A DNA stretch of 64,000 nt from a virus, in the IMG/VR virus record IMGVR_UViG_3300023179_000039, positions 1-64,000 of that record. One strand, 5' to 3'. Below, one piece after another: positions 1,776-64,000 of the stretch; positions within the stretch are counted from its first letter, which is position 1; each line of letters opens with the position of its first letter. Position numbers and translations under genes: made by a program. The notes beneath the pieces are model-generated. The model saw only the letters and a list, made by a program, of their open reading frames with translations, did not search any database and was not told the origin of the DNA.

Positions 1776-1946
1776 TTAAAAAATTTTTTCTTTTAGAGCA
1801 TTCTCGATTTTTGATTTAATCTTCAAATCGATAACACTCTGTAAATATTTATTAGCCTCGGAATAATTTTTTTGAGAAATAGACTTTAAAAACCCAACTA
1901 TTTCCTTTTGTTCGTTTAGCTTAGATTCTTTCTTAGCCTTTGGCAT
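1776..1946 (-). CDS. Small prohead core-associated protein (probable start ATG 1946, MPKAKKES...)
   Basis: Lies between gp21 and gp22. TAAATA at 1952-1957 is 5 nt before ATG 1946, which favours this start over the ORF-track 1991. Confidence 0.55.
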   Translation of the reverse strand: MPKAKKESKLNEQKEIVGFLKSISQKNYSEANKYLQSVIDLKIKSKIENALKEKIF

Positions 1947-1995
1947 AGAATTATTTATTTTTTTGCCTCCCGTTTTTTTAGAATGTTTCATAAAA

Positions 1996-2667
1996 TTAAG
2001 AAGCTCTTAAAAACTTAAAAAACGTCAAAATTTGCTCTTTAAGGTAAGTTTGCATTTCCTTTCTTGGTAAAGTATTTAGCGATTTTTCAAATTTATCAAA
2101 TACTTCTTCTAATTCACCGTTTGTATTGACAACATATTGTTTGCTTTCTAGAATACCGTTAACAAAAGCCTTAGGACAGGATGGATCAGCAACACAATCA
2201 ACAGCTATTAATCTCATGTCTGTTACGCGATTAACACCCCCTGCATCTTCATTTAGCTTTCCTAATGCACGGCTAGACATACCAACCTTAACACCATCAT
2301 TAATAAGTGAACGTACTATTTGTCCCATGGGAGTAGATAGTACTTGTGATTTACCTAGAACGTGGTTGCCCTCAAATTTTAAATTTGTAACAATATGACA
2401 TGCTCTTTCAAGATTTACTTCTGCTGAAGCAGGGTGATTTAATTCTCCCATGGCGCGCTTGGTGCTGACCATTTCAGAAACATATCTCTCTACTTCACGG
2501 CGCATATCATCCTTTTCGTAAATTCGTTGATTTTTATTTACTTCATTACAAACCATGTAAGGGCCTTGAATATAAAGCTTTGCGGGCTCCTTAGGATTTT
2601 TCTCTTCTAGGATATATTCAAACTGCTCTTCAGGAGCAGGTGTTTCGACGAGTAGACGAAGCGCCAT
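1996..2667 (-). CDS. gp21: Prohead protease, gp21-like
   Basis: Motifs LYIQGPYM, NKNQRIY, RAMGELNHP, STPMGQIV, VGMSSRALG, DCVADPS. Confidence 0.95.
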   Translation of the reverse strand: MALRLLVETPAPEEQFEYILEEKNPKEPAKLYIQGPYMVCNEVNKNQRIYEKDDMRREVERYVSEMVSTKRAMGELNHPASAEVNLERACHIVTNLKFEGNHVLGKSQVLSTPMGQIVRSLINDGVKVGMSSRALGKLNEDAGGVNRVTDMRLIAVDCVADPSCPKAFVNGILESKQYVVNTNGELEEVFDKFEKSLNTLPRKEMQTYLKEQILTFFKFLRAS

Positions 2668-2671
2668 AATA

Positions 2672-3130
2672 TTATTTATTTAGTCCTAATTCCTTTTCTG
2701 TTAATATTAAGAATTTATAATTTCTTTTATCACACCACTTTTTAGCAGCTTCCCATTTAGCCATATTCTGTATATATCTTTTATTTTCATAAATGACAGT
2801 GCTCTGTCTTTTCTTACCAGGTTTTGGTTGAACAACCTGTGAAGATGGCTTAATTTCTATTATATACTTGTTGATAATACCGTTTTCTCTTATTGCTACA
2901 ACACCGTCTGTATAATATCTATGTGTTTTACCATCAATAGGGTTTACATATGGTATTATGATTGCCTCGCTTGCCCATTCAACTATATTAACATTTTCAT
3001 CACACCATCTAAAGAAACGAAGCTCCCACCCAGATCTGTAAACCGGCGGCGTACGGCCTATGTATTTTGATGTATTTCTAGGGCGAAATATACCCTGGCG
3101 AAAGCTATCGTTTTTACCAAGAGGTATCAT
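2672..3130 (-). CDS. gp4: Head completion nuclease, gp4-like
   Basis: Motifs YRSGWELRFFRWCD, WASE, IPY, YYTD, IEIKP, N.AKWEAA, ILTEKEL. Confidence 0.9.
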   Translation of the reverse strand: MIPLGKNDSFRQGIFRPRNTSKYIGRTPPVYRSGWELRFFRWCDENVNIVEWASEAIIIPYVNPIDGKTHRYYTDGVVAIRENGIINKYIIEIKPSSQVVQPKPGKKRQSTVIYENKRYIQNMAKWEAAKKWCDKRNYKFLILTEKELGLNK

Positions 3131-4206
3131 TATCCAACAAAAAACTGCGGAGGTGCGGCATCGCCTAAGCCAGGTGCACCTTCATATAGCTTTTGCTCGA
3201 GTTTTTCTTTTTCTGCTAATCCTTGAGATAGTAAATCATTATAATTAATTTGACCGCCACCAAACATTGTCGTACCTGTATATTTGCCTCTTACATTGCC
3301 TATAGCAATTTTACTTAAAGCAAGAGCATATTGATAAACCCAAGGCTCTTTGATAATATCTTTTAATCGTCTTTCTACATAACATGCTACGACTCCGTAA
3401 AATCTAGATCCGGAGCCTGGTGTTCTGGGCGGTGGATAGAAAGTTAAATATTGTGTTCTATCATCAAATGTAATATATCTTTTAACTGCTAATAATTTTT
3501 CTCTCATTTTAAGCCAGTCTTTTAAGGTATACCAGCTAATTAAATCAAAACCATAATTACCCATTGCATAGCTAAAATATGTTTGTTGAGCTAGTGTTTG
3601 CTCAATTGTAAAGAGTGAATTAATTCCAGTGTTTGAACCTTCTTCGAAGTCTATTACATCTATAACTTTTCTATAATCCATTGCATCATAGTCATAGCTA
3701 TTTGTAAACTTTAGTTTTTCATTTGCGGATGCTGTGAAATATTGCCCTAAAACACCATTCCAATTAATGACAGAAAGGTAGCTTGACGTTGTCAATATTT
3801 GATTTTGAAATATGCCCGAGCTATATGTACTGGAAAGTGTATTTGAGTTTGTAAAGTAGGATGCAGGGATAGAGGAACTAGCTGCATAAACAGTGGGAGA
3901 TGGGTCTATATTTTTATTAAAATAAGGTGTAATAGTGAATAGACTATCAAGCCTTATACCTTTACCATCTTCATATAAATTAGAATCAAAAATAAGATAC
4001 TCTTCTGTATAGCCAGCAAATTTAGCAAACATTTCACAAGCAATGGAAATATTTTCAAACAGTTGATCATGATGTAGTTCTAAATTAATCATAGGCGCTC
4101 CTAAGGAACGAGTAATTCTATCAGCAAGTCTAGAGAAAGAATCAATCTTATTGTTTAGATTAGTACTCTGAAACGCTGTAATAGGCGTAATTGCAGAACA
4201 GTCCAT
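3130..4206 (-). CDS. gp13: Neck protein, gp13-like
   Basis: Motifs RSLGAPMINLEL, WVYQYALAL.K...G.VRGKY, GGGQIN, C-terminal PPQFFVG. Confidence 0.88.
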   Translation of the reverse strand: MDCSAITPITAFQSTNLNNKIDSFSRLADRITRSLGAPMINLELHHDQLFENISIACEMFAKFAGYTEEYLIFDSNLYEDGKGIRLDSLFTITPYFNKNIDPSPTVYAASSSIPASYFTNSNTLSSTYSSGIFQNQILTTSSYLSVINWNGVLGQYFTASANEKLKFTNSYDYDAMDYRKVIDVIDFEEGSNTGINSLFTIEQTLAQQTYFSYAMGNYGFDLISWYTLKDWLKMREKLLAVKRYITFDDRTQYLTFYPPPRTPGSGSRFYGVVACYVERRLKDIIKEPWVYQYALALSKIAIGNVRGKYTGTTMFGGGQINYNDLLSQGLAEKEKLEQKLYEGAPGLGDAAPPQFFVG

Positions 4207-4221
4207 ATAGTTATTTATCTA

Positions 4222-6071: not shown

Positions 6072-6875
6072 TTAAAACTTGTAAGTATAATCTACGTTTG
6101 TTATTTGTGGTGTACCTGAAAGAGATACAACTTCTAGTTCATCTACTAAGCCCGTACTAACAGGGTATGCAAAAGTACTGTCTTCTAGGCTCTCATAAGT
6201 TGTAATTTTAGACGATACTCTAAAGTTTGAATCAATATAGAAAATATTGCCAACAGGGTTTTCGACATAAGGGAATAACCACCCTTTAATAGTAAATGCA
6301 GTATCACCAACTATTCTATACTTATCAGAAGAAGAAATATCTGTTGGATAATTGATAGTCACTCCACCATCCCATAGCACTTCACTTCGTATTTCTTGAG
6401 GTATTGAACTTGATGCTATATCTTCAGGTACTTTCCACGAAAGTATAATATAAGGATTACTGTATGGAACAAAGTTAGATATAATTTGATCCATATCGGT
6501 TTGAAATTTTGTAATGATAGACATTCCAACTTGTATGTTTACCGGTACAGGAGTCCTATAAAACTGAGAATTTATTAAAGCATCTCTTTCGCCTGATCCT
6601 CTTGAAACGTAAAAACCTGCAAGTTTGTTAAACACTCTTGTCTCATCACGACTGACACTATTAATAGTAACAGCTACTACGGGTACAGTTAAGTTTTGTG
6701 CCTTATTTACCAAATCATATAAAACTCTTTGCTTAGGAGCATAGACGTATCTAACCTGAATCTTACTCTGCGGTACTCTATTCTTATCGTATCTCTTGAT
6801 AATAATATTATCAAAAGCGGCAACAAATTGAGTAATAAGATCTTTTATCTCAAAATGAAATGTCTGGTTCTTCAC
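6072..6875 (-). CDS. gp15: Tail sheath stabilizer / tail terminator, gp15-like (probable GTG start at 6875)
   Basis: Motifs F...FDNIIIKR, VRYVYAPKQ, PVPVNI, DMDQII, FTIKGWLF. TAAATA lies 5 nt before GTG 6875. Confidence 0.82.
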   Translation of the reverse strand: MKNQTFHFEIKDLITQFVAAFDNIIIKRYDKNRVPQSKIQVRYVYAPKQRVLYDLVNKAQNLTVPVVAVTINSVSRDETRVFNKLAGFYVSRGSGERDALINSQFYRTPVPVNIQVGMSIITKFQTDMDQIISNFVPYSNPYIILSWKVPEDIASSSIPQEIRSEVLWDGGVTINYPTDISSSDKYRIVGDTAFTIKGWLFPYVENPVGNIFYIDSNFRVSSKITTYESLEDSTFAYPVSTGLVDELEVVSLSGTPQITNVDYTYKF

Positions 6876-6886
6876 TATATTATTTA

Positions 6887-13788: not shown

Positions 13789-13820
13789 ATAATTTTAATA
13801 TTATATAATAAATAATAACG

Positions 13821-14531
13821 ATGGCAATAAACACTTCTAACAGCAACTATGTAAATATCAGTAATCTTCCTCAAGCACAAGAGGCAATAGATACTGATCT
13901 AATAATTTTGCAAACAGAGAACGGTACTCAAACTATAACGTTTGGTGACTTTAATGTTGTAAAAACAGATGCTGCTGGTAATGCTACGATTGTAGGTAAT
14001 GTTACCGGAGCTAACGCTACTTTTAGTACGTTGTCAGCTAGCAATTATATAAAGACTTTAAATTATTACGCAGGTAATAATACAAAAGGCATCTATGCGC
14101 CAAATGCTTTTTACAACAGATTTACTATTAATGCAGGGTTAATAACTTCTGCAGATATTAATCTAGGATCTCCGGAATATGTTAACATTACGCAAGTAGT
14201 ATTACCATCTCTAACTGGTTGGCAAGACACGCAATATAAGAAGATTATTGACATTAATAACAATTCTGCAACAATTCTAGCTAATTATTCTTATGTGCCT
14301 GTTGAAATTATTAATTTTTATCAATCATATCCACAAATTGCATCTTCCTCACTAAACGGTACACATTTCATGCTAACAGCCACATCTAGATTATCTTCCA
14401 TGCCCTACCTTACCGATTTAAATAATGATCTATATAGATCTAATACAAACAATTTGTATTTTAGAATTAATTTAGGTTACGTTGTACCGCAAAACACTGT
14501 AATTAATTGGCGACTTCTTTACACGTATTAA
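13821..14531 (+). CDS. Putative virion structural / fibre-associated protein
   Basis: Late box TAAATA 13809-13814; N/T/S-rich, beta-type composition; N-terminal VNISNLPQ motif. Confidence 0.5.
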   Translation: MAINTSNSNYVNISNLPQAQEAIDTDLIILQTENGTQTITFGDFNVVKTDAAGNATIVGNVTGANATFSTLSASNYIKTLNYYAGNNTKGIYAPNAFYNRFTINAGLITSADINLGSPEYVNITQVVLPSLTGWQDTQYKKIIDINNNSATILANYSYVPVEIINFYQSYPQIASSSLNGTHFMLTATSRLSSMPYLTDLNNDLYRSNTNNLYFRINLGYVVPQNTVINWRLLYTY

Positions 14532-14737
14532 CGTGTATGGAACATTAATGCTTTATTAATACGCGCTAAAGCTATTCTTGGATGCAATCCTTCATCTAGT
14601 AATCTCTTATATTCCGTCTTGAACGATTTTACAAAGTCTTCTGATAGTCTGAAGTTTTTAGGGTAAAATTCTTTTTTAACTGTTTTTAAGTATTTAAAGC
14701 TTTCTAGAAGCTTGTCTACATTATCATTAAACGTCAT
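14528..14737 (-). CDS. Small hypothetical protein with capsid-targeting-like N-terminus (MTFNDNVDKLLE)
   Basis: TAAATA 5 nt before ATG. Confidence 0.6.
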   Translation of the reverse strand: MTFNDNVDKLLESFKYLKTVKKEFYPKNFRLSEDFVKSFKTEYKRLLDEGLHPRIALARINKALMFHTR

Positions 14738-14745
14738 TAAAATAT

Positions 14746-15483
14746 TTATCTGCCGGTAATGATTTTTTTCCTTATCTTTTGCTCTTCTTTTTCTTCAACT
14801 AACGCACTTTTCTGCACTCTAAGTAATTTCTCCATTTCGTCAATGTTTTTAGGGTCTAATACACTAGATTGATCATCAATTAATTCGCCTTTTTCATCAA
14901 GGTAAAATTTAATCATTTCTACACGCTGTTCTGGTGTACCAAAGATTTCTATAATAGGTGGTCGGTCATCATCAGCCATAAAAGGGCAAACACTATGACG
15001 CATTAAATTATATTCAATTCCTTTAAAAATATTATCTATTTCATTAATAAACTCTTTATCGATTTCGCGTGTTTCTTTTAACTCTACTTTAACAGGAGCC
15101 ACTTTTGTAATAGGAAGATAGAAAATAATATCAATAGACTTCATACTCTCTTTTACTAAAGGAATACATTTTTTAATAAATTCACTATCAATATCAGAGC
15201 TCTGCTTGTCTTCAGCCCAAAGCGAGTGCACAAGATTATCTAGCGGGCAGCGATCAAAAACAATTTTATCACCTTTTTCTGTGTGTTGAATATCGTCAAT
15301 AAGGCAATTTAAAATTTTCCATTGTCCATCCTTATCAACTTCTTTGTTAATTTTTATTTTCTCTTTTTTTAGAAGAGCACGATATGATTCGTCTGATCTT
15401 TTGTATGAGGGCCAATTTTTAATAATATCATTAACTAGTGTACTTTTACCCTGACATGCAGCGCCGCTAATAGCTATTCTCAT
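14746..15483 (-). CDS. P-loop NTPase, AAA_28 / nucleotide kinase-like (probable start ATG 15483)
   Basis: MRIAISGAACQGKST Walker A, FDRCPLD; ATG lies 1 nt after the queE stop. Confidence 0.75.
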   Translation of the reverse strand: MRIAISGAACQGKSTLVNDIIKNWPSYKRSDESYRALLKKEKIKINKEVDKDGQWKILNCLIDDIQHTEKGDKIVFDRCPLDNLVHSLWAEDKQSSDIDSEFIKKCIPLVKESMKSIDIIFYLPITKVAPVKVELKETREIDKEFINEIDNIFKGIEYNLMRHSVCPFMADDDRPPIIEIFGTPEQRVEMIKFYLDEKGELIDDQSSVLDPKNIDEMEKLLRVQKSALVEEKEEQKIRKKIITGR

Positions 15484-16222: not shown

Positions 16223-16306
16223 ATAGTTCTATATTAATAGATATTTTTACTAATTCCATTTAATTATATATGACAAAAAAGCTTTATCAAGAATAAATAA
16301 TTATAG

Positions 16307-18125: not shown

Positions 18126-18162
18126 ACAATTATTTAATAATAATAGTTGTTAAAACACTATA

Positions 18163-19441: not shown

Positions 19442-19489
19442 ATTATTATTTATGTTGATCTTGTTACATCTTATCATATAATAGCTGAT

Positions 19490-45131: not shown

Positions 45132-45161
45132 TTTACATTTTAAATCATATATCATAATAAC

Positions 45162-46445: not shown

Positions 46446-46449
46446 GTTT

Positions 46450-47130: not shown

Positions 47131-47160
47131 TATCTTGCATATATAAGCTATTATAAACAT

Positions 47161-48569: not shown

Positions 48570-48599
48570 TATAGCTATTTTTTCTATTAAAATAATCGA

Positions 48600-49720: not shown

Positions 49721-49724
49721 TTTT

Positions 49725-49931
49725 ATGGACTTTATCGTACCTAAGAAAATTGTTTCACCTATAAGCGGCGAAACAGTCGTTCCTCGTTTACATACATATG
49801 TGAGAGAGGGTAAGCAAATCGTAGAAGCAGAATATATTGACCCTGCAAGCGGAGTCTTTATTAGAAAAGGCATTGTTTCAGTAACAGATTTGCCTAAACA
49901 AAATAAAAATACAGACAAAAAAGCTGAATAA
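49725..49931 (+). CDS. Small hypothetical late protein
   Basis: TAAATA 5 nt before ATG. Confidence 0.6.
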   Translation: MDFIVPKKIVSPISGETVVPRLHTYVREGKQIVEAEYIDPASGVFIRKGIVSVTDLPKQNKNTDKKAE

Positions 49932-49973
49932 CTTTTGTCTTGTATTTGTTTGTTAAACTATTATACTTAACTT

Positions 49974-51005: not shown

Positions 51006-51396
51006 CAGAAATAAGATATCCCTTTAACGATTCGCTTAGCGAGCTTAATTCTGAAGCAAGTCTCGCTATTTTCTTTTTTTCACTTCTAGCAATATCTTCA
51101 AAAATAGTATCACAAGCTGCTGTATGTAATTGTACTTGCATGCTTGAAGGTTCTGTACTATTTAAAAACTTAATGAATTCATCTATTTGAGAAATCCATT
51201 CTCTTAGCTTTTGAACTTGTTCTGTCTTTCTGTGATCCTGTACTTGCTCTCTACCACCTTGTACATCAAAATCTTCAGGCTTTGCATTAGTTAATGTCTG
51301 TGCCATAGCTTCTTTGTCGTTAGCAGGAGCAGCAGGTTCTGGGGTAGTTTCGTCAGCTTCTAAAAGCGTATAAAATCTTTTAACAAATGAACTCAT
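50992..51396 (-). CDS. Hypothetical late protein with capsid-targeting-like N-terminus (MSSFVKRFYTLLE-A)
   Basis: TAAATA 5 nt before ATG. Confidence 0.6.
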   Translation of the reverse strand: MSSFVKRFYTLLEADETTPEPAAPANDKEAMAQTLTNAKPEDFDVQGGREQVQDHRKTEQVQKLREWISQIDEFIKFLNSTEPSSMQVQLHTAACDTIFEDIARSEKKKIARLASELSSLSESLKGYLISANDR

Positions 51397-51426
51397 ATTA
51401 TTATTTATTATTGAATAAATAATTTT

Positions 51427-51813
51427 GTGAGAAAAAAGCTTGTTTTTGAAGATATTCTTAACTATAACAAATGGGTTTCTGGTATAGCTTCAAGAGAGCT
51501 TGCCACTCAAAAAGTTACACTTAAAGACATTTTTAACGGACCTTCCACCGAACAAAGCCCTAATGATGCTAAAGCAGACCCTGTAGTACCTTATCCTTTA
51601 CAAAATACTGTACAACAGATAGGAGAGCTTTATATTAATGCTACTAATGCAAAACAATCAGTTCTAAGCTCTTTAAATAACCCTGTATTAAAAGATAATA
51701 AAATAGCAAAAGAAGCAGTTAAAGGTGTTTTAGAAAGATTAGATATTATTATAAACACCGTACAAGACATAATAAAGTTAACTAATAAGCCGGTTGCAAA
51801 AAAAGAAAAATAA
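51427..51813 (+). CDS. Hypothetical late protein
   Basis: TAAATA 5 nt before GTG. Confidence 0.6.
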   Translation: MRKKLVFEDILNYNKWVSGIASRELATQKVTLKDIFNGPSTEQSPNDAKADPVVPYPLQNTVQQIGELYINATNAKQSVLSSLNNPVLKDNKIAKEAVKGVLERLDIIINTVQDIIKLTNKPVAKKEK

Positions 51814-51827
51814 GTTATAATACTATA

Positions 51828-52268
51828 ATGGCAAAAAGACTCTTGGGTCAACTAATATCTTTGTTATTAGTTTCAGTTATTTTTAGTGTGTTATTAAAAC
51901 ACTTTGATGTAAGCTATTGGGTGGGTGGGCTGTTCGGTATTGCAGTACAGTTTGCCGGGTTTTATGCTTTTAAAGCAATTCTCTCTACTTACGCAGCATT
52001 ACAAGATAAAAAGCTAGAAAACGAGCGCATAAAAGAATTATCGTATCAAGGGCTAAGCGTAGCCTGCCCTTGTTATAAAGCAGTTAAACAGTTTGTTCCT
52101 ATTAAGCTTAATGCACCTAACTATTACAAATGCGGCGATTGTAACAAACTAGTAGGCGTTTATGTAAATGCAGAGACTGCTATTGTAACTGAACCGCAAG
52201 AATCTAGTCTAGAAGCAGTAAATAGTTTATTATCTAAGAGCGTTGCTGCAGCAACTAAAACCGTATGA
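51828..52268 (+). CDS. Membrane protein (two TM segments) with C-terminal zinc ribbon
   Basis: Two hydrophobic stretches, then CPC...CGDC. Confidence 0.6.
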   Translation: MAKRLLGQLISLLLVSVIFSVLLKHFDVSYWVGGLFGIAVQFAGFYAFKAILSTYAALQDKKLENERIKELSYQGLSVACPCYKAVKQFVPIKLNAPNYYKCGDCNKLVGVYVNAETAIVTEPQESSLEAVNSLLSKSVAAATKTV

Positions 52269-53947: not shown

Positions 53948-54268
53948 TTATTTCTCTAGAACTGCCTTTCCAATTAATGGATCAAATCTTAAAATTATCC
54001 CAGTATTACCTAGTTTTTTTGGTGTAGTACTAGCATATTTTAGATTAAACTCATCTTCTATTTGCTTTATTTCGGCTGTATTTAAAACGACTCTACCTTG
54101 TGTTTTACGTAATAGACCCTCTACTTTTTGATTTTTATGAATGGTTCTATGTGCTTTCGGTACAAATCTTGATTGCGAAGGCAGGGTAGCTCCTAGACCT
54201 TCATGACGCTTTTTAACAAAATTACCTTTTTTATTGAATTTACGCCAATGGTCTTTAAACGTATTCAC
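53948..54268 (-). CDS. Basic hypothetical late protein
   Basis: TAAATA 5 nt before GTG. Confidence 0.6.
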   Translation of the reverse strand: MNTFKDHWRKFNKKGNFVKKRHEGLGATLPSQSRFVPKAHRTIHKNQKVEGLLRKTQGRVVLNTAEIKQIEDEFNLKYASTTPKKLGNTGIILRFDPLIGKAVLEK

Positions 54269-54282
54269 ATTATTATTTAAGC

Positions 54283-54336: not shown

Positions 54337-55266
54337 TTATTTAAGACCGGCTAGATAAGCTCCAACCTTTGATGTCTTAGAAGCAACTACGTTAGCCTTA
54401 CCCTTAGGGGATGTGGGAGCGCCACCTTTTACGCCACCACCTACTAGAGCATGGCCTTTTTCACCATCATTACCGACTTTGTCAGTAACTTTACCATCAC
54501 CAGCACCGTGAGATGTTAAACTCTTTGTTACATCACCGACTTTATTGTCTTTCTTCTGTAGGCTTTCACCGGCAGAAGCGGGAAGTTCCTTAAGTTCAGT
54601 GGCTTCCTTAGCTACATTCCTGGAATTCTCTTCGTTATCTTCGTCGGAATCCTTCTCTTCATTATCTTCTTCAGCAGCTTCTTCTTCTTCGTTAGATTCT
54701 TCGCTACCAGCAGCTTCTTCACCACCAACTTCATCGCTTGTTTCATCAGCTTTATGAGCTTCTTCACCGGAGAGCAAATCAGCGAGAACGTCATGAAGCT
54801 TTTGAGCTACATCGCGAGGTAATGTTAAAGTTACTTCTTCTTCACCACCCTTATCTTCACCAGCATCAACGCTAGGAAGACCGAGTGCGGCGATATCGTC
54901 CGACTCAGCGTTCTCGGCCTGTCCGGCCATTACATCTTCAAAAAGTTTATCGAATATTGATTTGCTCATAAAAGTATTTATTGTTTGTACTTCCGTTTTT
55001 TCAAGGTTTTGTGAGAATTTTTTAGGTTCAAAGAAATTTTCTTTTTTAGAAGAATTAGGATCAACGATATCTTTATTAAAGCCATCCGCGTTTTCAGGTC
55101 CAGAATTCTTAGGGAGAAAAGCTTTCTTATCAGCCGTTGCTTCAACAGGCTTTTTATCATCAGCAACCTTAAAAGTGCCCTTAGGAGGAAAGACTGACTT
55201 TTTCTCTTCAATAACTTGCTTTTCATAGAAATCACCGAGTGTTACTAGAGTTCTCGCACCGTTCAT
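54337..55266 (-). CDS. Acidic, low-complexity late protein (probable prohead/internal protein) with nested in-frame start at 54969
   Basis: E/D-rich centre; TAAATA boxes before ATG 55266 (6 nt) and ATG 54969 (5 nt); followed by a terminator. Confidence 0.65.
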   Translation of the reverse strand: MNGARTLVTLGDFYEKQVIEEKKSVFPPKGTFKVADDKKPVEATADKKAFLPKNSGPENADGFNKDIVDPNSSKKENFFEPKKFSQNLEKTEVQTINTFMSKSIFDKLFEDVMAGQAENAESDDIAALGLPSVDAGEDKGGEEEVTLTLPRDVAQKLHDVLADLLSGEEAHKADETSDEVGGEEAAGSEESNEEEEAAEEDNEEKDSDEDNEENSRNVAKEATELKELPASAGESLQKKDNKVGDVTKSLTSHGAGDGKVTDKVGNDGEKGHALVGGGVKGGAPTSPKGKANVVASKTSKVGAYLAGLK

Positions 55267-55277
55267 ATTAAGTATTT

Positions 55278-58055
55278 ATGTTATATATGCCTAAAAAACA
55301 AGAAAGTCAATTTTATTTAGGAAATCAAAATTTACCCACAACAGATGCTGTATTTGATTATGAAGCACATCCAGAATGGGTACAAGATATAGCCAGATGT
55401 AGAAAAAATATATTATATTTTGCTGAGAACTTCTTCTATATTACCAATCTAGATGAAGGTAAGATGAAAATTAAACTTCATACTTATCAAAAGCGTATTT
55501 TAAGAAGTTTACGAGATAATAGATTTGTATGTTTATTAGCAAGTCGTCAAATTGGTAAAGCACTTGCTTTAGACACCCCAATACCTACTCCAGCTGGATG
55601 GACTACTATGGGTGAATTAAAAGACGGGGACATTGTATTTGGTTTAGATGGTAAAAGATGCAAGGTTGCAAAAGCTCATGATATTTTATTAAATAGAAAT
55701 TGTTATGAAGTGTTGTTTGATAATGGTGAAAAAATAATTGCTGACGAAGATCATTTGTGGTTAACACAAACTAGAGCCGAAAGACATAAAGAGATACAAG
55801 GTAGTAAAAAGACAACTAAAGAAATTTTCAATACTTTATTAACTAAATCTAAAACAAGACAAGAACCAAATCATAGAATTCCGGTTTGTTTGAATGGTAT
55901 AGAAACGAGTAGAAATTTACTACCAATAGATCCTTATGTTCTAGGATTTTGGTTGGGCGATGGAGCTTCTGAAGGCGGTACAATAACTGTTGGTAAAAGA
56001 GATTTAGATAATGTTATCTCTATTCTTAAAAATAATCAAATGCAGTTTAACAATTTAATTGTACATAAATACAATAAAAATGCTTTTACAGTGCGCATTA
56101 CAACCAGCAAAAACGTAAAGACTGAAAGTTTAAGCACATTATTAAAGGAAAATAATTTAGTTTTTAACAAACATATACCGCAAGAGTATATGTTAAGTAG
56201 CAGAACACAAAGATTATCTTTACTGCAGGGGTTAATAGATAGTGACGGCTATATAACAAAACATGGTATAGCTCAATTTTATAATACAAATTTAAATTTA
56301 GTAAAGCAGGTAAGAGAACTTATTGAAAGTTTAGGATACAAAGTAACTTACAAAGAATTTATTCCAAAACTCAGAGGTGTTGAATGCAGTAAAGTAGGCA
56401 CATTGACTTTTACTCCTTATGAAGAGGTATGTCTTTTAGACTTTAAAAAATCTAGACTAAAGAAAATAACTAAAAAAGAAAACGTTTCTAAATTAAGAGC
56501 TCAATGGCATTACATTAAATCTATAACCCCTGTAAAATCTGTGCCCGTTAGATGTATAACTGTAGATAATGAAACAGGGACATTTTTATGTGGAAAACAG
56601 TTTATTCCAACAAGTAATACTACATTAATGACAATATATGCTTTGTGGATAGCCTGTTTTTTTGAAGACCAACGTACTCTCATTGTCGCTAATAAAGAGC
56701 AAACAGCAATTAATATTTTTAAGAGAGTTCGTTTAGCTTATGAAAAACTACCAAACTATCTTAAACCAGGAACCGTAGAATATGGGAAAACATCAATGTC
56801 TTTGGGAAACGGGTCTAGTATTGGTATTTCGACGACAAGTAGTGATGCAGGCCGAGGCGATAGCTGTAATGTTTTAATTTTGGATGAGTTAGCATTTATT
56901 GACAACCATCTTGTTGAGCAATTCTGGAGTTCAGTATACCCAATTATTTCATCGTCCAAAAAATCTAAAATATTTGTTGCATCAACGCCAAACGGAACCG
57001 GTAATCTTTTTCATGAATTATATTCTGGGGCAATAGAGGGTAAAAATGATTGGCATGCTGAAAAAGTTGATTGGTGGGAGTTTCCCGGGCGTGATGATGT
57101 CTGGAAAGAAAAAACAATTAAAACTTTAGGCAGTAGAGAAGTTTTTGATCAAGAATTTGGTAATGTATTTTTACAAGCCGGAGAAAGTGCCATCGATGAA
57201 AAACTTTTTGAAGAAATGAAAACTGAATGTATTGAACCTAATTTTATTTTTGAAGAAGGAAAATATTTGATGTGGGAAGAGCCCTCACAGGATAAAATTT
57301 ATGTCGTCGGAGTCGACATAAGCGAAGGCGTAGGAGAAGCTGCAAGTGTTGTTCAAGTTTTAGATATTACGGATTTGAGAGAAATAAAACAAGTAGCAGT
57401 TTATCATGACCGTACAATTAGCCCTTACAATTTTACAACTAAGTTACACGAAATCTTAAAGCACTGGGGATCACCTCTTGCCATGATAGAAAGAAATAAC
57501 TGCGGTGCACAGGTTGTCGATCAACTTAAAAATACTATGGGATATGAAAATATAGTTTCATATGGAATTAAATCTGGACCGGTTTCGTTTAATAAAATTG
57601 GCGTACAAGCCCATACCAACACAAAATATAAAGGTGTAATGAATATGCGGTATTGGATGTCAGAATTAAAAGTATTAAAAATTAGAGATTTAAAAACGTT
57701 AAACGAATTAAAAGGGTTTGTTCGCTATCCTAACGGCACATGGGCGGCTAAACAAGGTTCAGATAGCTGGGATGATAGAGTAATGAGTCTTATGTGGGGG
57801 CTAATGATTTTAGAAAACGGGTTAGTGGAAAAATATTTTGAAATTGTAGAGTTTGATAATAATAAAAAACCATTAAAATTAAAATCTTTAGATTATGGAA
57901 TTAAGTATTTTCTAAACCCTGCATCAATTTATAACAATGAAAAAAATGGCTTAGAAGGGTTACCACCTTTACCTATAGTAATACAACAACAAGATAATAA
58001 TGATTTTAATGAAATAGCTGATTTAGAATCACAAGGCTACCGCCGAATTCAATAA
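55278..58055 (+). CDS. gp17: Terminase large subunit gp17-like, intein-containing (start may be ATG 55287)
   Basis: SRQIGK|TT Walker A split by the intein; ANK, LDELAF, STPNG, QEF, GVDISEG, IERNN, DDRVM. Confidence 0.95.
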   Translation: MLYMPKKQESQFYLGNQNLPTTDAVFDYEAHPEWVQDIARCRKNILYFAENFFYITNLDEGKMKIKLHTYQKRILRSLRDNRFVCLLASRQIGKALALDTPIPTPAGWTTMGELKDGDIVFGLDGKRCKVAKAHDILLNRNCYEVLFDNGEKIIADEDHLWLTQTRAERHKEIQGSKKTTKEIFNTLLTKSKTRQEPNHRIPVCLNGIETSRNLLPIDPYVLGFWLGDGASEGGTITVGKRDLDNVISILKNNQMQFNNLIVHKYNKNAFTVRITTSKNVKTESLSTLLKENNLVFNKHIPQEYMLSSRTQRLSLLQGLIDSDGYITKHGIAQFYNTNLNLVKQVRELIESLGYKVTYKEFIPKLRGVECSKVGTLTFTPYEEVCLLDFKKSRLKKITKKENVSKLRAQWHYIKSITPVKSVPVRCITVDNETGTFLCGKQFIPTSNTTLMTIYALWIACFFEDQRTLIVANKEQTAINIFKRVRLAYEKLPNYLKPGTVEYGKTSMSLGNGSSIGISTTSSDAGRGDSCNVLILDELAFIDNHLVEQFWSSVYPIISSSKKSKIFVASTPNGTGNLFHELYSGAIEGKNDWHAEKVDWWEFPGRDDVWKEKTIKTLGSREVFDQEFGNVFLQAGESAIDEKLFEEMKTECIEPNFIFEEGKYLMWEEPSQDKIYVVGVDISEGVGEAASVVQVLDITDLREIKQVAVYHDRTISPYNFTTKLHEILKHWGSPLAMIERNNCGAQVVDQLKNTMGYENIVSYGIKSGPVSFNKIGVQAHTNTKYKGVMNMRYWMSELKVLKIRDLKTLNELKGFVRYPNGTWAAKQGSDSWDDRVMSLMWGLMILENGLVEKYFEIVEFDNNKKPLKLKSLDYGIKYFLNPASIYNNEKNGLEGLPPLPIVIQQQDNNDFNEIADLESQGYRRIQ
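55560..56618 (+). mobile_element. Class 3 intein (353 aa) with LAGLIDADG homing endonuclease, in the terminase Walker A motif
   Basis: Starts ALALDTPIPT; block B ADEDHLW; LGFWLGDG and LQGLIDSDG; block F VRCITVD; ends FIPTSN followed by Thr. Confidence 0.93.
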
Positions 58056-58063
58056 ATATTTTT

Positions 58064-58726
58064 ATGGCAAACTTAGTTACATACACCCAAAGCCCTTTTA
58101 ATAAGGCGCGTAAAGACAAATTTTTATTTGTCTTAAATTTACCCCCTTGCTTAAAAGACATCTCTAGAAAAACCGAACGTAGTAATCAAACAGTAATGCC
58201 TGATTCTTTACAATTTTCAGTTTTTGGTGCAATCGTACCAGAAGTAACAGTACCTTCTGTACAATTAAGATATTCCGGTCAAACTTTACACAATTCGAGT
58301 CATTCACGCGACCCCTACCCTCCCGTTACAATTAATTTTACTGTTGACAATAGATTTAATAATTACTGGATCATTTATAAATGGCTGGACCTTCTTAATA
58401 GCGCAAAGTTAAGTTATTATGATGCAAATAATTTGACAAAATCTAATATTAAGGAAACACCGGGAAATATTGATCCTCGCGAAAATTCGAATTCTGCTCT
58501 AGCTGCTGTTGGCTATGATTATCTTAAGTTTAGAGCTAACTTTTCATTGTTTGCGTTAGATGAATATGATAAAAGAATTATTGAATTTATATACAAAGAA
58601 GCGTTTCCTACAGCTATAGGAAGTATTAATTTTAACAATAGAGATGCCTCAGAATTAGAAACTTCTTTTACGTTTGAATATTCTCAGCTGGAAGTATCTC
58701 TTATTGAACAGGTAGATAGTTTGTAA
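58064..58726 (+). CDS. Tail completion / tube terminator, gp3-like
   Basis: Tube-fold pattern F.VD....NY..IYKW, F..AFPTAIG.I.F, F.YS. Confidence 0.7.
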   Translation: MANLVTYTQSPFNKARKDKFLFVLNLPPCLKDISRKTERSNQTVMPDSLQFSVFGAIVPEVTVPSVQLRYSGQTLHNSSHSRDPYPPVTINFTVDNRFNNYWIIYKWLDLLNSAKLSYYDANNLTKSNIKETPGNIDPRENSNSALAAVGYDYLKFRANFSLFALDEYDKRIIEFIYKEAFPTAIGSINFNNRDASELETSFTFEYSQLEVSLIEQVDSL

Positions 58727-58767
58727 AAAATTAAAAAGTTTTATCCAAAAAGACATAAATACTTTAT

Positions 58768-61065
58768 ATGGCACGTACAATTCAGTCACCCGGAGTTGAA
58801 ATTCAAGAAATAGATTTATCGTTGAGAAACGCTGGTGCACCATCTACCGTGGTGTTTGTTCCAGGATTTGCATCAAAAGGCCCTTCTTCAGAACCTATTA
58901 GCGTTACATCGTTATCAGAATTTGAACAGATTTTTGGTCAGCCTACCAACTCCGCTGAAAGATATTTTTATCACTCTGTAAAAGCTACTCTACAGTCACC
59001 TGCAACTCCTATTGTATATCGTCTACCTTACGGTGCCGGTGCAGGAGTAGATACAAGTGATGAATACAGTGCTTTGGTATATCCTGTTAAGACCTACTGC
59101 CCTTCCACCGGATATGTAGATACAGATTTAACAAAGCCCGATAGCGTTTACTTTTTTGGAGCTCCTACTCACTTAAAACTTACACAATCAGAATATCTTT
59201 CAATCTTAAAGGGCGATGCTTTTAGCTGGGATAGCAATACATACGGCAGAACAACATTTAATTCTGTAACAGCTCTAAGCGGCGCAGGAATGATAGTTTT
59301 AAATAAAGGACAAACAACAATCAATACAAAGTTTGAAGGTGTATATATTGGTGTTATAGATAATACAAACCTAAATCCAGCTACACCTTACAATGATGTT
59401 AATGCAGTATACAGTGTCAACAAGGAAGACAAATCAATCGAAGGATCAAACTACGTTACAATTCCTGAAGTTCGTCTTAACTTTACTCTTTCCGCTGATT
59501 CAACAGGCTTACAGGGCAGTGTATCCGAGGTATTAGAAAATATACCTACATTTGATATTTCTTCAAATCAGTTTGATGATACCGTAACAATCGGCGTCTT
59601 TAAGCTCAGACAATCAGTATTCTCACCAGATACAATTGCTCTCGATTTCGTACTACAAGAAGGTTATACAGCTTCATTCGACGCCAACCGTCAGATTAAT
59701 AGTACTAATGGCGGACCCGCTGTTAGCTACTTCATGGAAACCGCAGATCAAAATTCTACAAATATTACAACCATTATTAACCCTTATATTTCTAATAAGG
59801 GTGCAAATACATGGCTAGATGCAAATGGTGTTCCGGTTAAGAAAGTACGTTTTCTTAGCACCGGCCTTGCAACGCCTCTAGATGGTGAAACATCAACACA
59901 ATATTTAGCCCGCGTCGGTGCACCTCAGGCAACAGTACAGAGCTTACTTGCCTCACTAGGTACAACAAACGCTCTTTACGCTCTAGGTGATTATAATAGT
60001 GAAGATCTTTCTACAAAAATCATTGGTAATGTACCAGCTAAGCTTTCGATAGCTACAGAAAAGATAACAAATTCTGATCTCTATCCTTTAAATCTAACTG
60101 TAGAGGCTGGTCTCGGTACAGTGTACGTAAATTCGTTTAACCCTTCAACATACGGTTATTTTGATGATAGTGTACCTTATGATCTAGTCAATGAAACCTT
60201 AGCTATACAAAATCCTAGCACAACTTCTGATATTGTACAACAATACAACGCAGTAGTTGCACCGTTTATTAATTTAACGTTAACACGAAAAGATCATATG
60301 TTTATCGCTGATGCGATTACTAACATCTTTATACAAGGTGCTAATCTTAAGACATTAGATATTCCGGATAACACATTTTCATCTCATATTTACTGGCCCC
60401 TAAAGAATCAATTTGCTGGTGTAGATACTAGCTATGCTTGCACATTTGGTAATGTAGCTAAAGTAGCTGATCCTTCAACAAACCAACAGGTTTGGGTTCC
60501 ATTCTCTGGATTTGCTGCAGCATCAATGGCTTCAACTGATACTAACTTCCAGCCATGGTATGCACCGGCAGGCTTTACCCGTGGTATTATCAATGGCGTA
60601 GTAGATATTGGTATGTATCCTAAGCAGAAACAACGCGATCAGCTTTATCGTATTAATATTAATCCGGTAACATTCTTCCCTGCAGAAGGGTTTGTAATCT
60701 TCGGGCAGAAGACTCTTCAAAAGAAGCCAAGCGCTTTTGATCGTATTAATGTACGTAGACTGTTCTTGAATATCGAAACAGCAACTCGCGATACAGTTAA
60801 GTTCTTCTTATTTGAGCCAAACACATTGTTTACCCGTACTCAAATTATCAATAGCTTAACACCAATCTATGATAATGCTAAAAATACACAAGGTATATAT
60901 GATTATCTCTTAATTTGCGACGAACGTAATAATACGCCCGAGACTATTGATGATAATACAATTGTAATAGATGTCTATATTAAGCCTGTAAGAGCTGCAG
61001 AGTATATACTTTGTAACTTCTACTGCACAAGAACTGGTACAAACTTCCAGGAGATTGTAACTTAA
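58768..61065 (+). CDS. gp18: Tail sheath protein, gp18-like
   Basis: Motifs SPGVEIQEIDLS, PWYAPAGFTRG, RDQLY...INP, FGQKTL....SAFDRINVRRLF, FEPN, IKP. Confidence 0.96.
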   Translation: MARTIQSPGVEIQEIDLSLRNAGAPSTVVFVPGFASKGPSSEPISVTSLSEFEQIFGQPTNSAERYFYHSVKATLQSPATPIVYRLPYGAGAGVDTSDEYSALVYPVKTYCPSTGYVDTDLTKPDSVYFFGAPTHLKLTQSEYLSILKGDAFSWDSNTYGRTTFNSVTALSGAGMIVLNKGQTTINTKFEGVYIGVIDNTNLNPATPYNDVNAVYSVNKEDKSIEGSNYVTIPEVRLNFTLSADSTGLQGSVSEVLENIPTFDISSNQFDDTVTIGVFKLRQSVFSPDTIALDFVLQEGYTASFDANRQINSTNGGPAVSYFMETADQNSTNITTIINPYISNKGANTWLDANGVPVKKVRFLSTGLATPLDGETSTQYLARVGAPQATVQSLLASLGTTNALYALGDYNSEDLSTKIIGNVPAKLSIATEKITNSDLYPLNLTVEAGLGTVYVNSFNPSTYGYFDDSVPYDLVNETLAIQNPSTTSDIVQQYNAVVAPFINLTLTRKDHMFIADAITNIFIQGANLKTLDIPDNTFSSHIYWPLKNQFAGVDTSYACTFGNVAKVADPSTNQQVWVPFSGFAAASMASTDTNFQPWYAPAGFTRGIINGVVDIGMYPKQKQRDQLYRININPVTFFPAEGFVIFGQKTLQKKPSAFDRINVRRLFLNIETATRDTVKFFLFEPNTLFTRTQIINSLTPIYDNAKNTQGIYDYLLICDERNNTPETIDDNTIVIDVYIKPVRAAEYILCNFYCTRTGTNFQEIVT

Positions 61066-61069: not shown

Positions 61070-61080
61070 TAAATACTTTT
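61070..61080 (+). promoter_or_regulatory. T4-type late promoter (TAAATA-N5-ATG) of the tail tube gene; representative of about 30 sites
   Basis: TAAATA 61070-61075, CTTTT, ATG 61081. A gp55 homologue is present in the window. Confidence 0.8.
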
Positions 61081-61629
61081 ATGGCAGACGTAAATCAATT
61101 AATTACAGACTTCTACAGAGTAGCACAAAATCGCGAGTTCGCTCGTGATTATAACTTCAGAGTATTATCAATTAATACTGGAGGCGCTAGCAACGTAACA
61201 TTCGATCAAGACGATCTCGTATATGTTAAGACAGCTTCTTTACCTGCCCGTCAAATAAAAAACGTCGAAGTACCTTACATGGGATTAAACTTTAACCTTC
61301 CTGGTAATGCTACGTATCCCGGTTCTGATGCTTATGAAATGGCATTTTATGCTGATGCACAGTCTAAAATTCGTCAGAAATTTGAAACATGGTCATTAGA
61401 TATCTTTAATGACGCTAATTCAACCGGTAACTATTTTGCACCAAAGCAGACAGCTATTATTGATTTAGTTCAACTCGATAACCAGCTTAACAAAGTTGCA
61501 CAGTATCAATTAGTTGGTGTTTCAGTAAGAAATGTTGGCCCGATAAGCTATAACATTGCTGCTGGCACTGGCGAAACAATTGAATTTACCGCTACAGTTT
61601 CTTATCACTATTGGAGAAATATCGGCTAA
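61081..61629 (+). CDS. gp19: Tail tube protein, gp19-like
   Basis: Motifs ASLPA, VPYMG, IRQKFETW, VQLD, IEFTAT.SY.YW; follows the sheath gene. Confidence 0.88.
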   Translation: MADVNQLITDFYRVAQNREFARDYNFRVLSINTGGASNVTFDQDDLVYVKTASLPARQIKNVEVPYMGLNFNLPGNATYPGSDAYEMAFYADAQSKIRQKFETWSLDIFNDANSTGNYFAPKQTAIIDLVQLDNQLNKVAQYQLVGVSVRNVGPISYNIAAGTGETIEFTATVSYHYWRNIG

Positions 61630-61653
61630 TAGTGTCGGGTAATAAATAATTAG

Positions 61654-62562
61654 GTGAATAACCCGCTCACCGATGCGCTTAATGGTTTAGGTAAAAATTT
61701 TACCGGTTTATTTACAGGTACTAATCCGTCTTTTTCTCCTCAAATTACTGATCTGTTTGGGTTTAATATACCCGGAGTTCCTTTAATTAGTGTACGTGAT
61801 TATTTCCTCGTACAAATGGAATCTTGGTTTACTTCAATACCAAATTCTACACAATGGATAATTGTAATTGATAGATACCCATCATGTTTGAGCACAAGCG
61901 TTATTCAAGGTCTTGAGCGTACTGATGGTGCAAAGAAAGGGTTTAATATAGATACTGCTGCATCGATTTTAAAAAGTTTTCCTTTTCAAAAAATTATAGG
62001 TTGCTTGTTTGCACATGAGGTAACTATTCCTACCGAGCAGTTCGAAGTACAAACGGCTAATGTTAATAACAACAGAGGATTTTTACCAGGTATTTTAGGT
62101 GGTCCGAGGAGTAATGATTTTCCTTCTCTAGTAATAGATTTTCGCGAAACTAACACTTCATTTATAGATTTTGTTATAAGACCCTGGGTTATTTTAGCAT
62201 CACACTTTGGAATGGTTGCACGACCTGGTGACACAGGTAGATCACGTGATCCTAATAATGTTAAATGTAATATGACATTACTTAACTATACCCGTACAAG
62301 CGCAGGTATTTCAATGGTACCTCGAAAAGCATTTACATTTTTTAATTGTGTGCCTTATCAAGTCAGTGAACAATCTTATGACTACACAGATGAAAAATTG
62401 TTGTCATATCAAACTAGATGGACATATTCGCATTATACAGTAGAGAATAGTTTGTACTTGCCTATTGGAGACTTAGTGAATAGAATATCTCAAGGTGAAA
62501 TACCGAGAGTTACAAGCTTCCAAAACGGACTTAGTATTCCTAATCCGGTAAACTTCTTATAA
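61654..62562 (+). CDS. Tail tube-like baseplate protein (gp48/gp54-like)
   Basis: Tube-fold pattern (FRETN, PW, F.NC.P, W.Y); position after gp19. Confidence 0.55.
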   Translation: MNNPLTDALNGLGKNFTGLFTGTNPSFSPQITDLFGFNIPGVPLISVRDYFLVQMESWFTSIPNSTQWIIVIDRYPSCLSTSVIQGLERTDGAKKGFNIDTAASILKSFPFQKIIGCLFAHEVTIPTEQFEVQTANVNNNRGFLPGILGGPRSNDFPSLVIDFRETNTSFIDFVIRPWVILASHFGMVARPGDTGRSRDPNNVKCNMTLLNYTRTSAGISMVPRKAFTFFNCVPYQVSEQSYDYTDEKLLSYQTRWTYSHYTVENSLYLPIGDLVNRISQGEIPRVTSFQNGLSIPNPVNFL

Positions 62563-63401
62563 TGTCATTTCATTTAAACTTTACATCTCCAACACTAAAC
62601 AAAAATTTTAAACTTAAAGAACTAAGTTTCTCTCAATATAGGACGCTGAATAAATTTTTAATTAACAATAACAATAATCATATTTCAGAATATTTAGACA
62701 TCATACTACACGAATGTCTAGTAGAAAAAAATGAGTTCTTAGATCTTTCAAGTTTTGATAAATTTTGCGCATTGTTCTTACTTAGATGTACATGTATTTC
62801 TCCAGAAATAGAATTTTTAAAGAATAATTTAAAATCAAAAGCTTCTTTACTACCTTTTTTACAGAAATGTCTAGATTTTAAAACAGAGTTTTTTGAAACT
62901 GTTAAAGTAGATGAAAATATTGAATTAAAATTATCTTTACCGAAAATATTTTTCTTTGAAACTTATTTCGATGCAATGTATGAATCTATTGATTCTGTAT
63001 ATCACAATGGCAACCTTGTAGAATATAGCAACAAAAAAGAACTAGTAGAGATTTTACCTGCAGGGGTTCTTAATTCTTTAAAAGAGTTTAGTGAAAAAAT
63101 TACTGACGCTTTTAAGCCATTAGTTTTAAATATTGGCGTAAACGAAAAAGATCAATTTTCTTTGACACCTTATAATTTGTCGTTTTTAGAAATTTTAAAA
63201 GCACTTTTCTCTGCTAATTTAAAAAACATATTTGAACTGCAATATGTTTTAGTTAGTAAATGCAGATACAATCCTGACTATGTTGACAAAAACACATTGG
63301 CAGAAAATTTAATTCTACTAAGCGTTTATGAAGAAGAAGTAAAAAAGATTAACGAAGAACAGAGCAAATCAATTGATAAACAAAATTTAGGTAATAAATA
63401 G
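62562..63401 (+). CDS. Baseplate hub assembly protein (gp26/gp51-like)
   Basis: Pattern L..FDKF..LF.LR..CI, L.L.LP; position. Confidence 0.5.
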   Translation: MSFHLNFTSPTLNKNFKLKELSFSQYRTLNKFLINNNNNHISEYLDIILHECLVEKNEFLDLSSFDKFCALFLLRCTCISPEIEFLKNNLKSKASLLPFLQKCLDFKTEFFETVKVDENIELKLSLPKIFFFETYFDAMYESIDSVYHNGNLVEYSNKKELVEILPAGVLNSLKEFSEKITDAFKPLVLNIGVNEKDQFSLTPYNLSFLEILKALFSANLKNIFELQYVLVSKCRYNPDYVDKNTLAENLILLSVYEEEVKKINEEQSKSIDKQNLGNK

Positions 63402-63405
63402 GCTT

Positions 63406-64000
63406 ATGAGTACTTTTAATTCTGCTTTAAGTTCCTTAGAGTCACTCACAAAAATTTACGATATATTTGTACCTTCTCTTAACAAGACTGTCAAATTTAA
63501 AGGATTAACTACCAAGCAACAGAAAGAAGCTGTAAAAACCGCTCTAGATAAAAATATAACAGGAATTACTTTTTCAAACCTTTTAAATCAGGTTATTATA
63601 GAAAATTCTACAGAAAAAAACAAATATCTTCTTTCTGATAGGAGTTATATTGTTACTGCACTTCGTGTTACTTCTCTATCTAAAACCTTTACGGTAGATG
63701 AAACGGTTGTAGACCTTTCTTTTGTAAGTAACAATAAATTCGCTTTACCTGAGGATTTAAAAACAAAGGAAATAGTAGATGATAATGTAAAGATATCTGT
63801 TTCTATCCCAACCCTAGAAAAAGACACTTACGTTAATAATGAAACTCGTAAGAAATTAGCAGTACTTCCAGATAATGATAGTTTTGCCAAAGAGTCTATC
63901 GGTGAGGTTTTTGTTAATGAATTAGTAAAGTATATCGACTCTTTGACAATAATAGACGGTCAGCAGCCAACGACTATTGTTTTTAATGAACTAACTTTTG
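63406..64000 (+). CDS. Baseplate hub subunit, gp26-like (partial; runs off window end)
   Basis: Hand translation MSTFNSALSSLESLTKIYDIFVPSLNKTVKFKGLTTKQQKE...FDRSYIVTALR; TAAATA 63395-63400 lies 5 nt before ATG. Confidence 0.6.
   Translation, partial: MSTFNSALSSLESLTKIYDIFVPSLNKTVKFKGLTTKQQKEAVKTALDKNITGITFSNLLNQVIIENSTEKNKYLLSDRSYIVTALRVTSLSKTFTVDETVVDLSFVSNNKFALPEDLKTKEIVDDNVKISVSIPTLEKDTYVNNETRKKLAVLPDNDSFAKESIGEVFVNELVKYIDSLTIIDGQQPTTIVFNELTF

Follow-up and report, generated by a model that had tools for sequence, protein, structure and literature searches.

In the open complex that forms at late promoters of bacteriophage T4, gp55 flips the adenines at −12, −9, and −8 (PMC7892883), and the late box TATAAATA lies “about one helical turn” before the start, the melted segment being AT-rich (PMC2988020). 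The flipped adenines fix TATAAATA at −13 to −6, so a spacer of 5 nucleotides (nt) between the box and a start codon would place that codon at +1. In T4 itself, the boxes lie mostly 21 to 29 nt before the start codons, and the late messenger RNAs (mRNAs) have leaders with Shine-Dalgarno (SD) sequences. Here we analyze the first 64 kb (the window) of the 109,659-bp IMG/VR record IMGVR_UViG_3300023179_000039, which has a guanine-cytosine (GC) content of 33% and a CheckV completeness estimate of ~51%, and in which TAAATA, usually as ATAAATA (the L box), recurs with a 5-nt spacer before ATG and GTG codons. A first examination of the letters alone (the sequence-only reading) had proposed that the late genes of this phage are leaderless, taking as established both the gp55 geometry and the SD leaders of T4 late mRNAs. 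The published work bears out the former, and the T4 box distances, together with SD-like motifs at half of the T4 genes, bear out the latter. We consider it likely that fused late and host-type promoters, with predicted leaderless messages, are the best explanation of the pattern.

Leaderless phage messages, −10 elements abutting open reading frames (ORFs), and the T4 late system are each known already. Thermus phage phiYS40, like the present one a large myophage, expresses its later genes on leaderless mRNAs; according to a review, its middle and late mRNAs are mostly leaderless, host IF2 is raised, and IF3 is lowered (PMC3594737). Unlike the present phage, phiYS40 is not T4-like, has no gp55-type promoter, and infects a phylum rich in leaderless genes. 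Here, in contrast to phiYS40, the early class of promoters is fused as well, a bS21 protein is carried, and the record holds no homologue of IF1 or IF3. Promoter −10 elements abutting ORFs are common in Deinococcus-Thermus (PMC12340547, PMC4007540). Leaderless genes of that group and of actinobacteria resemble those described here in having a −10 element directly before AUG or GUG, but they belong to cellular genomes with housekeeping sigma factors, whereas here a phage has two promoter classes and a rigid −35 element. Lambda cI is a phage message that starts on the AUG as well, transcription from PRM beginning on its A (PMC10491246), but it concerns a single regulatory gene and not a genome-wide design. 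Our literature search returned no description of a phage clade whose general design is the fusion of T4-type late promoters to start codons, combined with fused promoters of the host type and a loss of SD sequences.

TAAATA boxes stand at a fixed distance from start codons

The 22 TAAATA-N5-ATG/GTG sites listed by the sequence-only reading were all recovered, with position and strand. When gene calls are ignored, the window contains 22 sites at spacer 5, and the other spacers from 0 to 30 nt give 0 to 5 sites each. In 200 dinucleotide-preserving shuffles of the window, spacer 5 gave 4.1 sites on average and 12 at most. In the whole record, 30 sites have spacer 5 and 11 have spacer 6; of the former, 28 begin an ORF of 56 amino acids (aa) or more. 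ATAAATA heptamers lie 5 to 7 nt before ATG or GTG in 29 of 57 cases in the record, versus 4 of 65 in T4. The TAAATA core is kept strictly and is often extended to ATAAATA; the complete TATAAATA is rare, with 8 copies in the record, two of them at spacer 5.

An AT-rich, tightly packed genome might generate this pattern as a by-product, with TAA stop codons and A/T-rich gaps preceding ATG codons. The GC content of 33% suits that explanation, as does the box at 58064, whose TAA is the stop codon of the upstream gene. Against it, the shuffles give about 4 sites and never 22, and the neighboring spacers remain at background; phage Mosig, which has the same GC content, shows a weak peak only, and T4 and the cyanophage P-SSM4 show none. 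Moreover, boxes stand on both strands at divergent gene pairs, and among orthologues the distance from stop codon to box varies while that from box to ATG is fixed. Shuffles and comparator genomes together already refute the by-product explanation, to which we give next to no credence.

Several of the spacer-5 boxes belong to genes of recognizable virion function. On the minus strand, they precede the ATG of a gp21-like prohead protease (box to start codon, 2665..2678; gene, 1996-2667), the ATG of a gp13/14-like neck protein (4204..4217; 3130-4206), and the GTG of a gp15-like tail sheath stabilizer (6873..6886; 6072-6875). On the plus strand, one precedes the ATG of the tail tube gene, gp19 (61070..61083; 61081-61629). 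Further minus-strand boxes followed by ATG open a 56-aa ORF starting at 1946 (1944..1957), ORFs of 69 aa (14735..14748) and 71 aa (18123..18136), and the gene at 26457-26906 (26904..26917); those followed by GTG open the genes at 19004-19441 (19439..19452), 21115-21777 (21775..21788), and 53948-54268 (54266..54279). The plus-strand counterparts with ATG are located at 46439..46452 (gene 46450-47130), 49714..49727 (68-aa ORF), 58053..58066 (gene 58064-58726, the box TAA being the terminase stop codon), and 63395..63408 (gene 63406-64155), and those with GTG at 20816..20829 (gene 20827-21150) and 61643..61656 (gene 61654-62562). Two intergenic gaps hold boxes on both strands: a 31-nt gap with back-to-back boxes (22494..22530; starts 22496, minus, and 22528, plus) and a 30-nt gap with a divergent pair (51394..51429; starts 51396, minus, and 51427, plus).

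The looser sites pointed out in the sequence-only reading exist as well. Spacers of 6 nt separate the box from the ATG of the gene at 13821-14531 (13809..13823, plus), of the tail sheath gene, gp18 (58756..58770, plus; 58768-61065), where the arrangement is kept in relatives, and of the gene at 54337-55266 (55264..55278, minus), where the box shares bases with the ATG of the terminase gene, which is encoded on the opposite strand. Seven-nt spacers precede the ATG of a PhoH-like gene (16294..16309, plus; 16307-17041) and of the genes at 20126-20749 (20747..20762, minus) and 40294-41193 (41191..41206, minus), and a 4-nt spacer precedes the GTG of a UvsY-like gene (27922..27934, minus; 27505-27924). 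At 48234..48248 (plus), the box is followed by ATGATG, so that the spacer is 6 nt to the proposed start at 48246 and 3 nt to an additional ATG at 48243. The TAAATT that lies 5 nt before 9669 is also present.

Another possibility is that the boxes are late promoters but that the true starts differ, the messages having leaders of a few nucleotides or using start codons farther downstream. The spacers of 4, 6, and 7 nt and the adjacent ATGs at 48243 and 48246 would fit such shifts, and five of the starts in the sequence-only reading had been chosen with the help of the motif. On the other side, 22 of the 30 spacer-5 sites of the record lie at the first possible start codon of ORFs that are 50 aa or longer, and the orthologous N termini align from residue 1 in the sheath protein, the tube protein, and the product of the 55266 gene. 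In addition, a leader of 1 or 2 nt would still be functionally leaderless. We therefore regard shifted starts as improbable.

The minus-strand gene at 54337-55266 has two promoter-fused in-frame starts, 55266 (box + 6 nt) and 54969 (box + 5 nt; 54967..54980). The sequence-only reading was right about the box and spacer before 54969; this codon is, however, an internal in-frame ATG, and the full-length start is 55266, which is conserved in a complete 217-kb relative (G001). The two starts may yield forms of 309 and 210 aa.

Replication genes carry host-type promoters with the same fusion

A second arrangement, hereafter the E promoter, has the layout TTGNNN-N16-TANNNT-N6-ATG/GTG. In 15 genes, TTG-N16-18-TANNNT ends 5 to 7 nt before ATG or GTG, and twelve of these have exactly TTGNNN-N16-TANNNT-N6. 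When spacer and distance were varied in a 7-by-10 grid, one cell was populated, with 12 occurrences in the record and 25 in G001, the other cells holding 0 to 10; the grids of T4, Mosig, and P-SSM4 have no such cell. Being independent of the L boxes, this class lends the strongest support to the reading of both arrangements as promoters fused to start codons. TTGA near −34/−33 is almost confined to this class and was seen with just two L boxes, one of them that of the gene at 46450-47130 (TTGA at −33). The L-box gene at 19004-19441 is divergent from a gene with an E promoter that starts at 19490.

All of the following E promoters are on the plus strand. That of the DNA polymerase gene, gp43, reads TTGATT-N16-TATAAT-N6-GTG (34872..34908). 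Promoters ending on ATG serve the gene starting at 37528 (37494..37530; the TGA stop codon of gp43 lies within its −35 TTGA), UvsX (37890..37926), a gp41-like helicase (42600..42636), gp32 (45128..45164), and the gene starting at 51828 (51794..51830), whereas those ending on GTG serve the sliding clamp (47127..47163), an RmlD-like gene (48566..48602), and the gp61 primase (49940..49976). The intergenic gaps are just wide enough for the promoter. In the 30-nt gaps, the preceding gene ends on the TGA that forms part of the next −35 TTGA (37494-37497, 45128-45131, 47127-47130, and 48566-48569).

L boxes precede gp21, gp13/14, gp15, gp18, gp19, and a fiber gene, as well as PhoH and UvsY, and E promoters precede gp43, UvsX, gp41, gp32, gp61, the clamp, and the gp44 operon. 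As judged by these annotations, the two classes divide by gene function as T4 biology predicts. The proposal that the boxed genes are late genes with leaderless messages thus stands in part. The boxed genes are mainly virion genes, but some, such as PhoH and UvsY, are non-structural; the layout extends to replication genes with sigma70-type promoters; and the capsid gene gp23 is an exception (see below). That the late program would consist of many short transcripts, as the sequence-only reading also suggested, is a conjecture, no terminators having been seen between the boxed genes.

The two classes also share their start codons. L genes start with ATG in 27 cases and with GTG in 9, and E genes with ATG in 10 and GTG in 5; TTG codons show no spacer peak, and none is used by an L or E gene. 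The spacer between L box and start codon is A/T-rich. Position −1 holds T in 27 of the 36 L genes, and position +1 is always A or G, the pyrimidine-purine step that typically marks a transcription start.

Nearly all genes that lack a fused promoter are coupled to their upstream neighbor

In a simple gene call of the record (109 genes), an L box precedes 36 genes, an E promoter 15, and an L box with one mismatch 4; 43 genes are coupled to the preceding gene by overlapping or adjacent stop and start codons, and 11 are of other types. A fused promoter of one of the three kinds is present on 55 of the 66 uncoupled genes. The coupled junctions are of the ATGA, TAATG, or TAA-N-ATG type, the commonest gaps being −4 (ATGA; 11 genes), −1 (4 genes), and +1 (10 genes). 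Several of the remaining genes have a −10-like hexamer 5 to 6 nt upstream, without TTG.

SD sequences are scarce. No SD-like word is enriched in the record, and at no offset is one found at as many as 4 genes. SD-like motifs at −18 to −5 are present in 6 of 108 genes here and in 22 of 280 in G001, compared with 122 of 250 in T4, 85 of 181 in Mosig, and 57 of 186 in P-SSM4. A generic scan of the 34- to 54-kb region gave 99 promoter-like matches versus 83 in shuffles and 15 terminator-like matches versus 9, and is uninformative in such AT-rich DNA.

The phage encodes a gp55-like sigma factor, a sliding clamp, and bS21

Most of the factors for T4-type late transcription are encoded. A gp55-like late sigma factor is located at 30021..30605 (plus). 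It matches phrog_234 (E = 8e-27), lies in uvsW-55-47-46 synteny, and has 37% identity with the product of T4 gene 55 (tblastn, E = 9e-9). The residues Y97 and T99, which belong to the pocket for A-12 and A-8, are conserved, as are L54 and F86.

A sliding clamp, the putative functional equivalent of gp45, is encoded at 47161..47892 (plus). Its predicted fold is that of PCNA (AlphaFold2 pLDDT, 91; Foldseek E = 2e-13, TM score 0.75), and there is a weak profile match to gp45. It has no match in Pfam, including the gp45 models, or among the PHROGs, and tblastn against 50,697 deposited phage records returned nothing; the clamp belongs to a sequence-orphan family with 258 clusters in metagenomes. 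A gp44-like clamp loader is located at positions 72765-73700 of the record. The system resembles that of T4 in its gp55 homologue with conserved base-flipping pocket residues, in encoding a clamp and clamp loader, and in having a TAAATA core about one helical turn before the predicted start, AT-rich DNA downstream of it, and virion genes behind it; a −35 element is probably lacking as well. It differs from T4 in that the box is 5 nt from the start codon, which would leave no leader, whereas the T4 box is mostly 21 to 29 nt away and followed by a leader with an SD sequence.

Within the replication-gene region, the phage also encodes ribosomal protein bS21 (44281..44493, plus; PF01165, 37.5 bits), which is kept in G001 (89444-89584) and in a second relative, G002 (15868-16029). 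Its C terminus is aromatic (W, F, Y), and its best Protein Data Bank matches are ordinary bS21 proteins. For the Bacteroidia-type bS21, which sequesters the anti-SD sequence (in Flavobacterium with a blocking Tyr), the F. johnsoniae chain 7jil_z is matched with an E value of 0.15 only, and the alignment ends before the aromatic C terminus, short of showing an equivalent residue. It is a matter of speculation that this protein favors leaderless or reinitiating translation.

These components bear on another explanation, in which TAAATA-N5 is not a promoter but an SD-independent translation signal on longer polycistronic mRNAs, such as an A/U-rich landing site for the ribosome or S1, possibly read by ribosomes carrying the phage bS21. 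The lack of SD motifs, the presence of bS21 across the clade, the fact that the motif keeps its place relative to the start codon rather than the preceding stop codon, and the failure to find terminators between neighboring boxed genes would all be compatible with it. However, the spacing equals the box-to-start distance of T4 gp55, of which a homologue is encoded, and the motif is found on virion genes and not on replication genes. The latter show the same fusion with a bipartite sigma70-type promoter, which cannot be a ribosome-binding site. Furthermore, the spacing tolerance of about 1 nt, the T at −1, and the purine at +1 suit transcription start selection better than ribosome binding. Nor would TAAATA be expected to pair with the usual 3′ tail of 16S rRNA. 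All in all, we consider this explanation unlikely, though a little less so than shifted starts.

The fused layout is conserved in related phages

The sequence-only reading had suggested the same scan in related genomes. Thirteen IMG/VR relatives found via the sheath protein show the spacer-5/6 peak, with 50 spacer-5 sites in G001 and 41 in G002 (193 kb). When metagenomes were scanned for the conserved first 20 nt of the tube gene, 94 stretches were obtained, of which about 47 are distinct upstream regions of true orthologues. In these, ATAAATA-N5-ATG is essentially invariant (the spacing is so in all 47), while 3 to 16 nt of sequence, unrelated between orthologues, separate the box from the sheath stop codon. 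It is thus the start codon, rather than the stop codon before it, that fixes the position of the box. No contig was found to end on the tube ATG in one metagenome scan that took contig ends as a stand-in for transcript ends.

A more distant relative, L023 (IMGVR_UViG_3300025102_000423; 38% sheath identity; GC content, 33%), has AGGAG 8 nt before the ATG of its sheath gene and a strong hairpin-T terminator after that gene. The use of an SD sequence and a terminator in this relative indicates that the fused layout is a derived trait of the clade.

The cultured SAR11 myophages Mosig EXVC030M and HTVC008M (Kyanoviridae), which are among the closest deposited T4-like phages, share a minority of ATAAATA-N5-ATG genes, with 8 ATAAATA spacer-5 sites in Mosig and 9 sites, against 2 for the control, in HTVC008M (NC_020484.1; controls across both, 2 to 3). 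Examples in Mosig (MT647606.1) are the coding sequences starting at 60990, 60328, 94129, 92381, and 92996. In contrast to the present phage, Mosig has SD-like motifs at about half of its genes, 9% of its genes in the L or E classes, and no rigid E class.

Predicted mechanism and observations that weigh against it

We propose that the TAAATA box serves this clade as its form of the T4 late promoter, which would be read by the host RNA polymerase with the phage gp55-like sigma factor and probably with the assistance of the phage sliding clamp. With the box 5 nt (sometimes 4 to 7 nt) before ATG or GTG, transcription would start on the start codon or within 1 or 2 nt of it. The resulting leaderless late mRNAs would be translated by initiation that depends on the 5′ end and not on SD pairing. 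Early and replication genes would follow the same design through their host-type TTGNNN-N16-TANNNT-N6-start promoters, and genes without a fused promoter would be reached by reinitiation at stop/start junctions. Each cistron would then either be at a 5′ end or be reached by reinitiation, which would explain why adjacent uncoupled genes each have a box of their own. As predicted from promoter geometry, about half of the messages in this phage and throughout its clade should begin on AUG or GUG without a ribosome-binding leader. In this proposal, we infer the transcription start sites, leaderless translation, and timing from the observed geometry, statistics, and conservation, the factors present, and the split of the promoter classes by gene function.

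Several observations weigh against this proposal. First, the gp55 contact residues N13, R57, and H95 are changed (N13S, R57A, and H95F), and, unlike in T4, the first T of the box, at −13, is not conserved. Second, gp33 was not found by phmmer or a two-sequence profile, either in the ~51% complete record or in the complete G001 genome; gp33 is small and fast-evolving. Third, the predicted folding of the first 35 nt of the mRNAs is no less stable for L and E genes than for coupled genes. In some relatives, purine-rich runs lie just 5′ of the box, 12 to 13 nt from the ATG. Finally, GTG accounts for about a quarter of the fused starts, and in Escherichia coli it serves poorly as a leaderless start codon. 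GTG leaderless starts are nevertheless used in mycobacteria and Deinococcus (PMC4007540).

The capsid gene provides the remaining evidence of this kind. Gene gp23 (minus strand; ATG at 789, leader 787..874) has no fused promoter. Its leader includes a hairpin (860-874) and two tandem 18-nt repeats (820-855), each with ATAAATT, followed by GGTCGAC and then by GGAG 12 nt before the ATG; the GGTCGAC...GGAGAAA segment is conserved in G001. The conserved leader is at least about 20 to 40 nt long. Since the gene of the most abundant late protein keeps it, GGAG included, the host ribosome may still use SD-like pairing, and leaderless expression would not extend to every late gene.

A broader version of the proposal would be that the clade dispenses with SD-led initiation altogether. 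All cistrons would be 5′-terminal or reinitiated, bS21 would retune host ribosomes against SD-led host mRNAs in a translational takeover, and the gp23 leader would be the single deliberate exception, kept for the most abundant protein. We regard this as a tentative idea, possible but rather doubtful.

If transcripts do start on start codons, promoter choice would be coupled directly to translation initiation, with the promoter serving as the ribosome entry signal, and the presence of a promoter on each uncoupled gene would be explained. Gene starts would be predictable to the base, and gene callers that expect a ribosome-binding site would miscall them. The clade would offer a natural system for efficient leaderless translation of highly expressed virion proteins, a function would be suggested for the phage-encoded bS21, and the T4 late-promoter mechanism would prove tolerant of complete loss of the leader. 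The clade is sizeable and widespread, with the 258 clamp clusters, the 94 tube-pattern stretches, and genomes of up to ~220 kb.

Identity of the phage and other genes of the window

On its gene content, the record is a deeply divergent, uncultured T4-like myophage. It encodes a T4-type portal (PF07230) and a family-B DNA polymerase; tail sheath, tail tube, gp21, gp13/14, gp15, and gp23 were identified among the structural genes, and gp46/47, UvsW, UvsX, UvsY, gp32, gp41, gp61, and gp44 among those for replication and recombination. The nearest deposited phages are cyanomyoviruses and SAR11 myophages, with ~30% identity for DNA polymerase and portal, and blastn against deposited phages gave no nucleotide match and no close relative. 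An Rfam scan of the window returned no family, no tRNA genes were found, and a PHROG scan of ten small early and late ORFs gave nothing useful. Thin profiles for regA and gp16 found no match. Clues to the host were equally scarce: a bS21 search of genome contigs returned only pattern-biased Gemmatimonadota matches, neither a protein search nor the Atlas gave relatives other than phages or viruses, and the RmlD-like gene had no genomic relative.

The large terminase gene (55278-58055, plus; 925 aa) contains a LAGLIDADG/Hom_end insert near residues 300 to 360, which by its domain match is likely an intein or a homing endonuclease. A glycosyltransferase gene lies at 33448-34704. A QueC-like gene (39008-39748, plus) and a glutamine-amidotransferase-like gene (41360-41926, plus) suggest, by their similarity, 7-deazaguanine modification of DNA.

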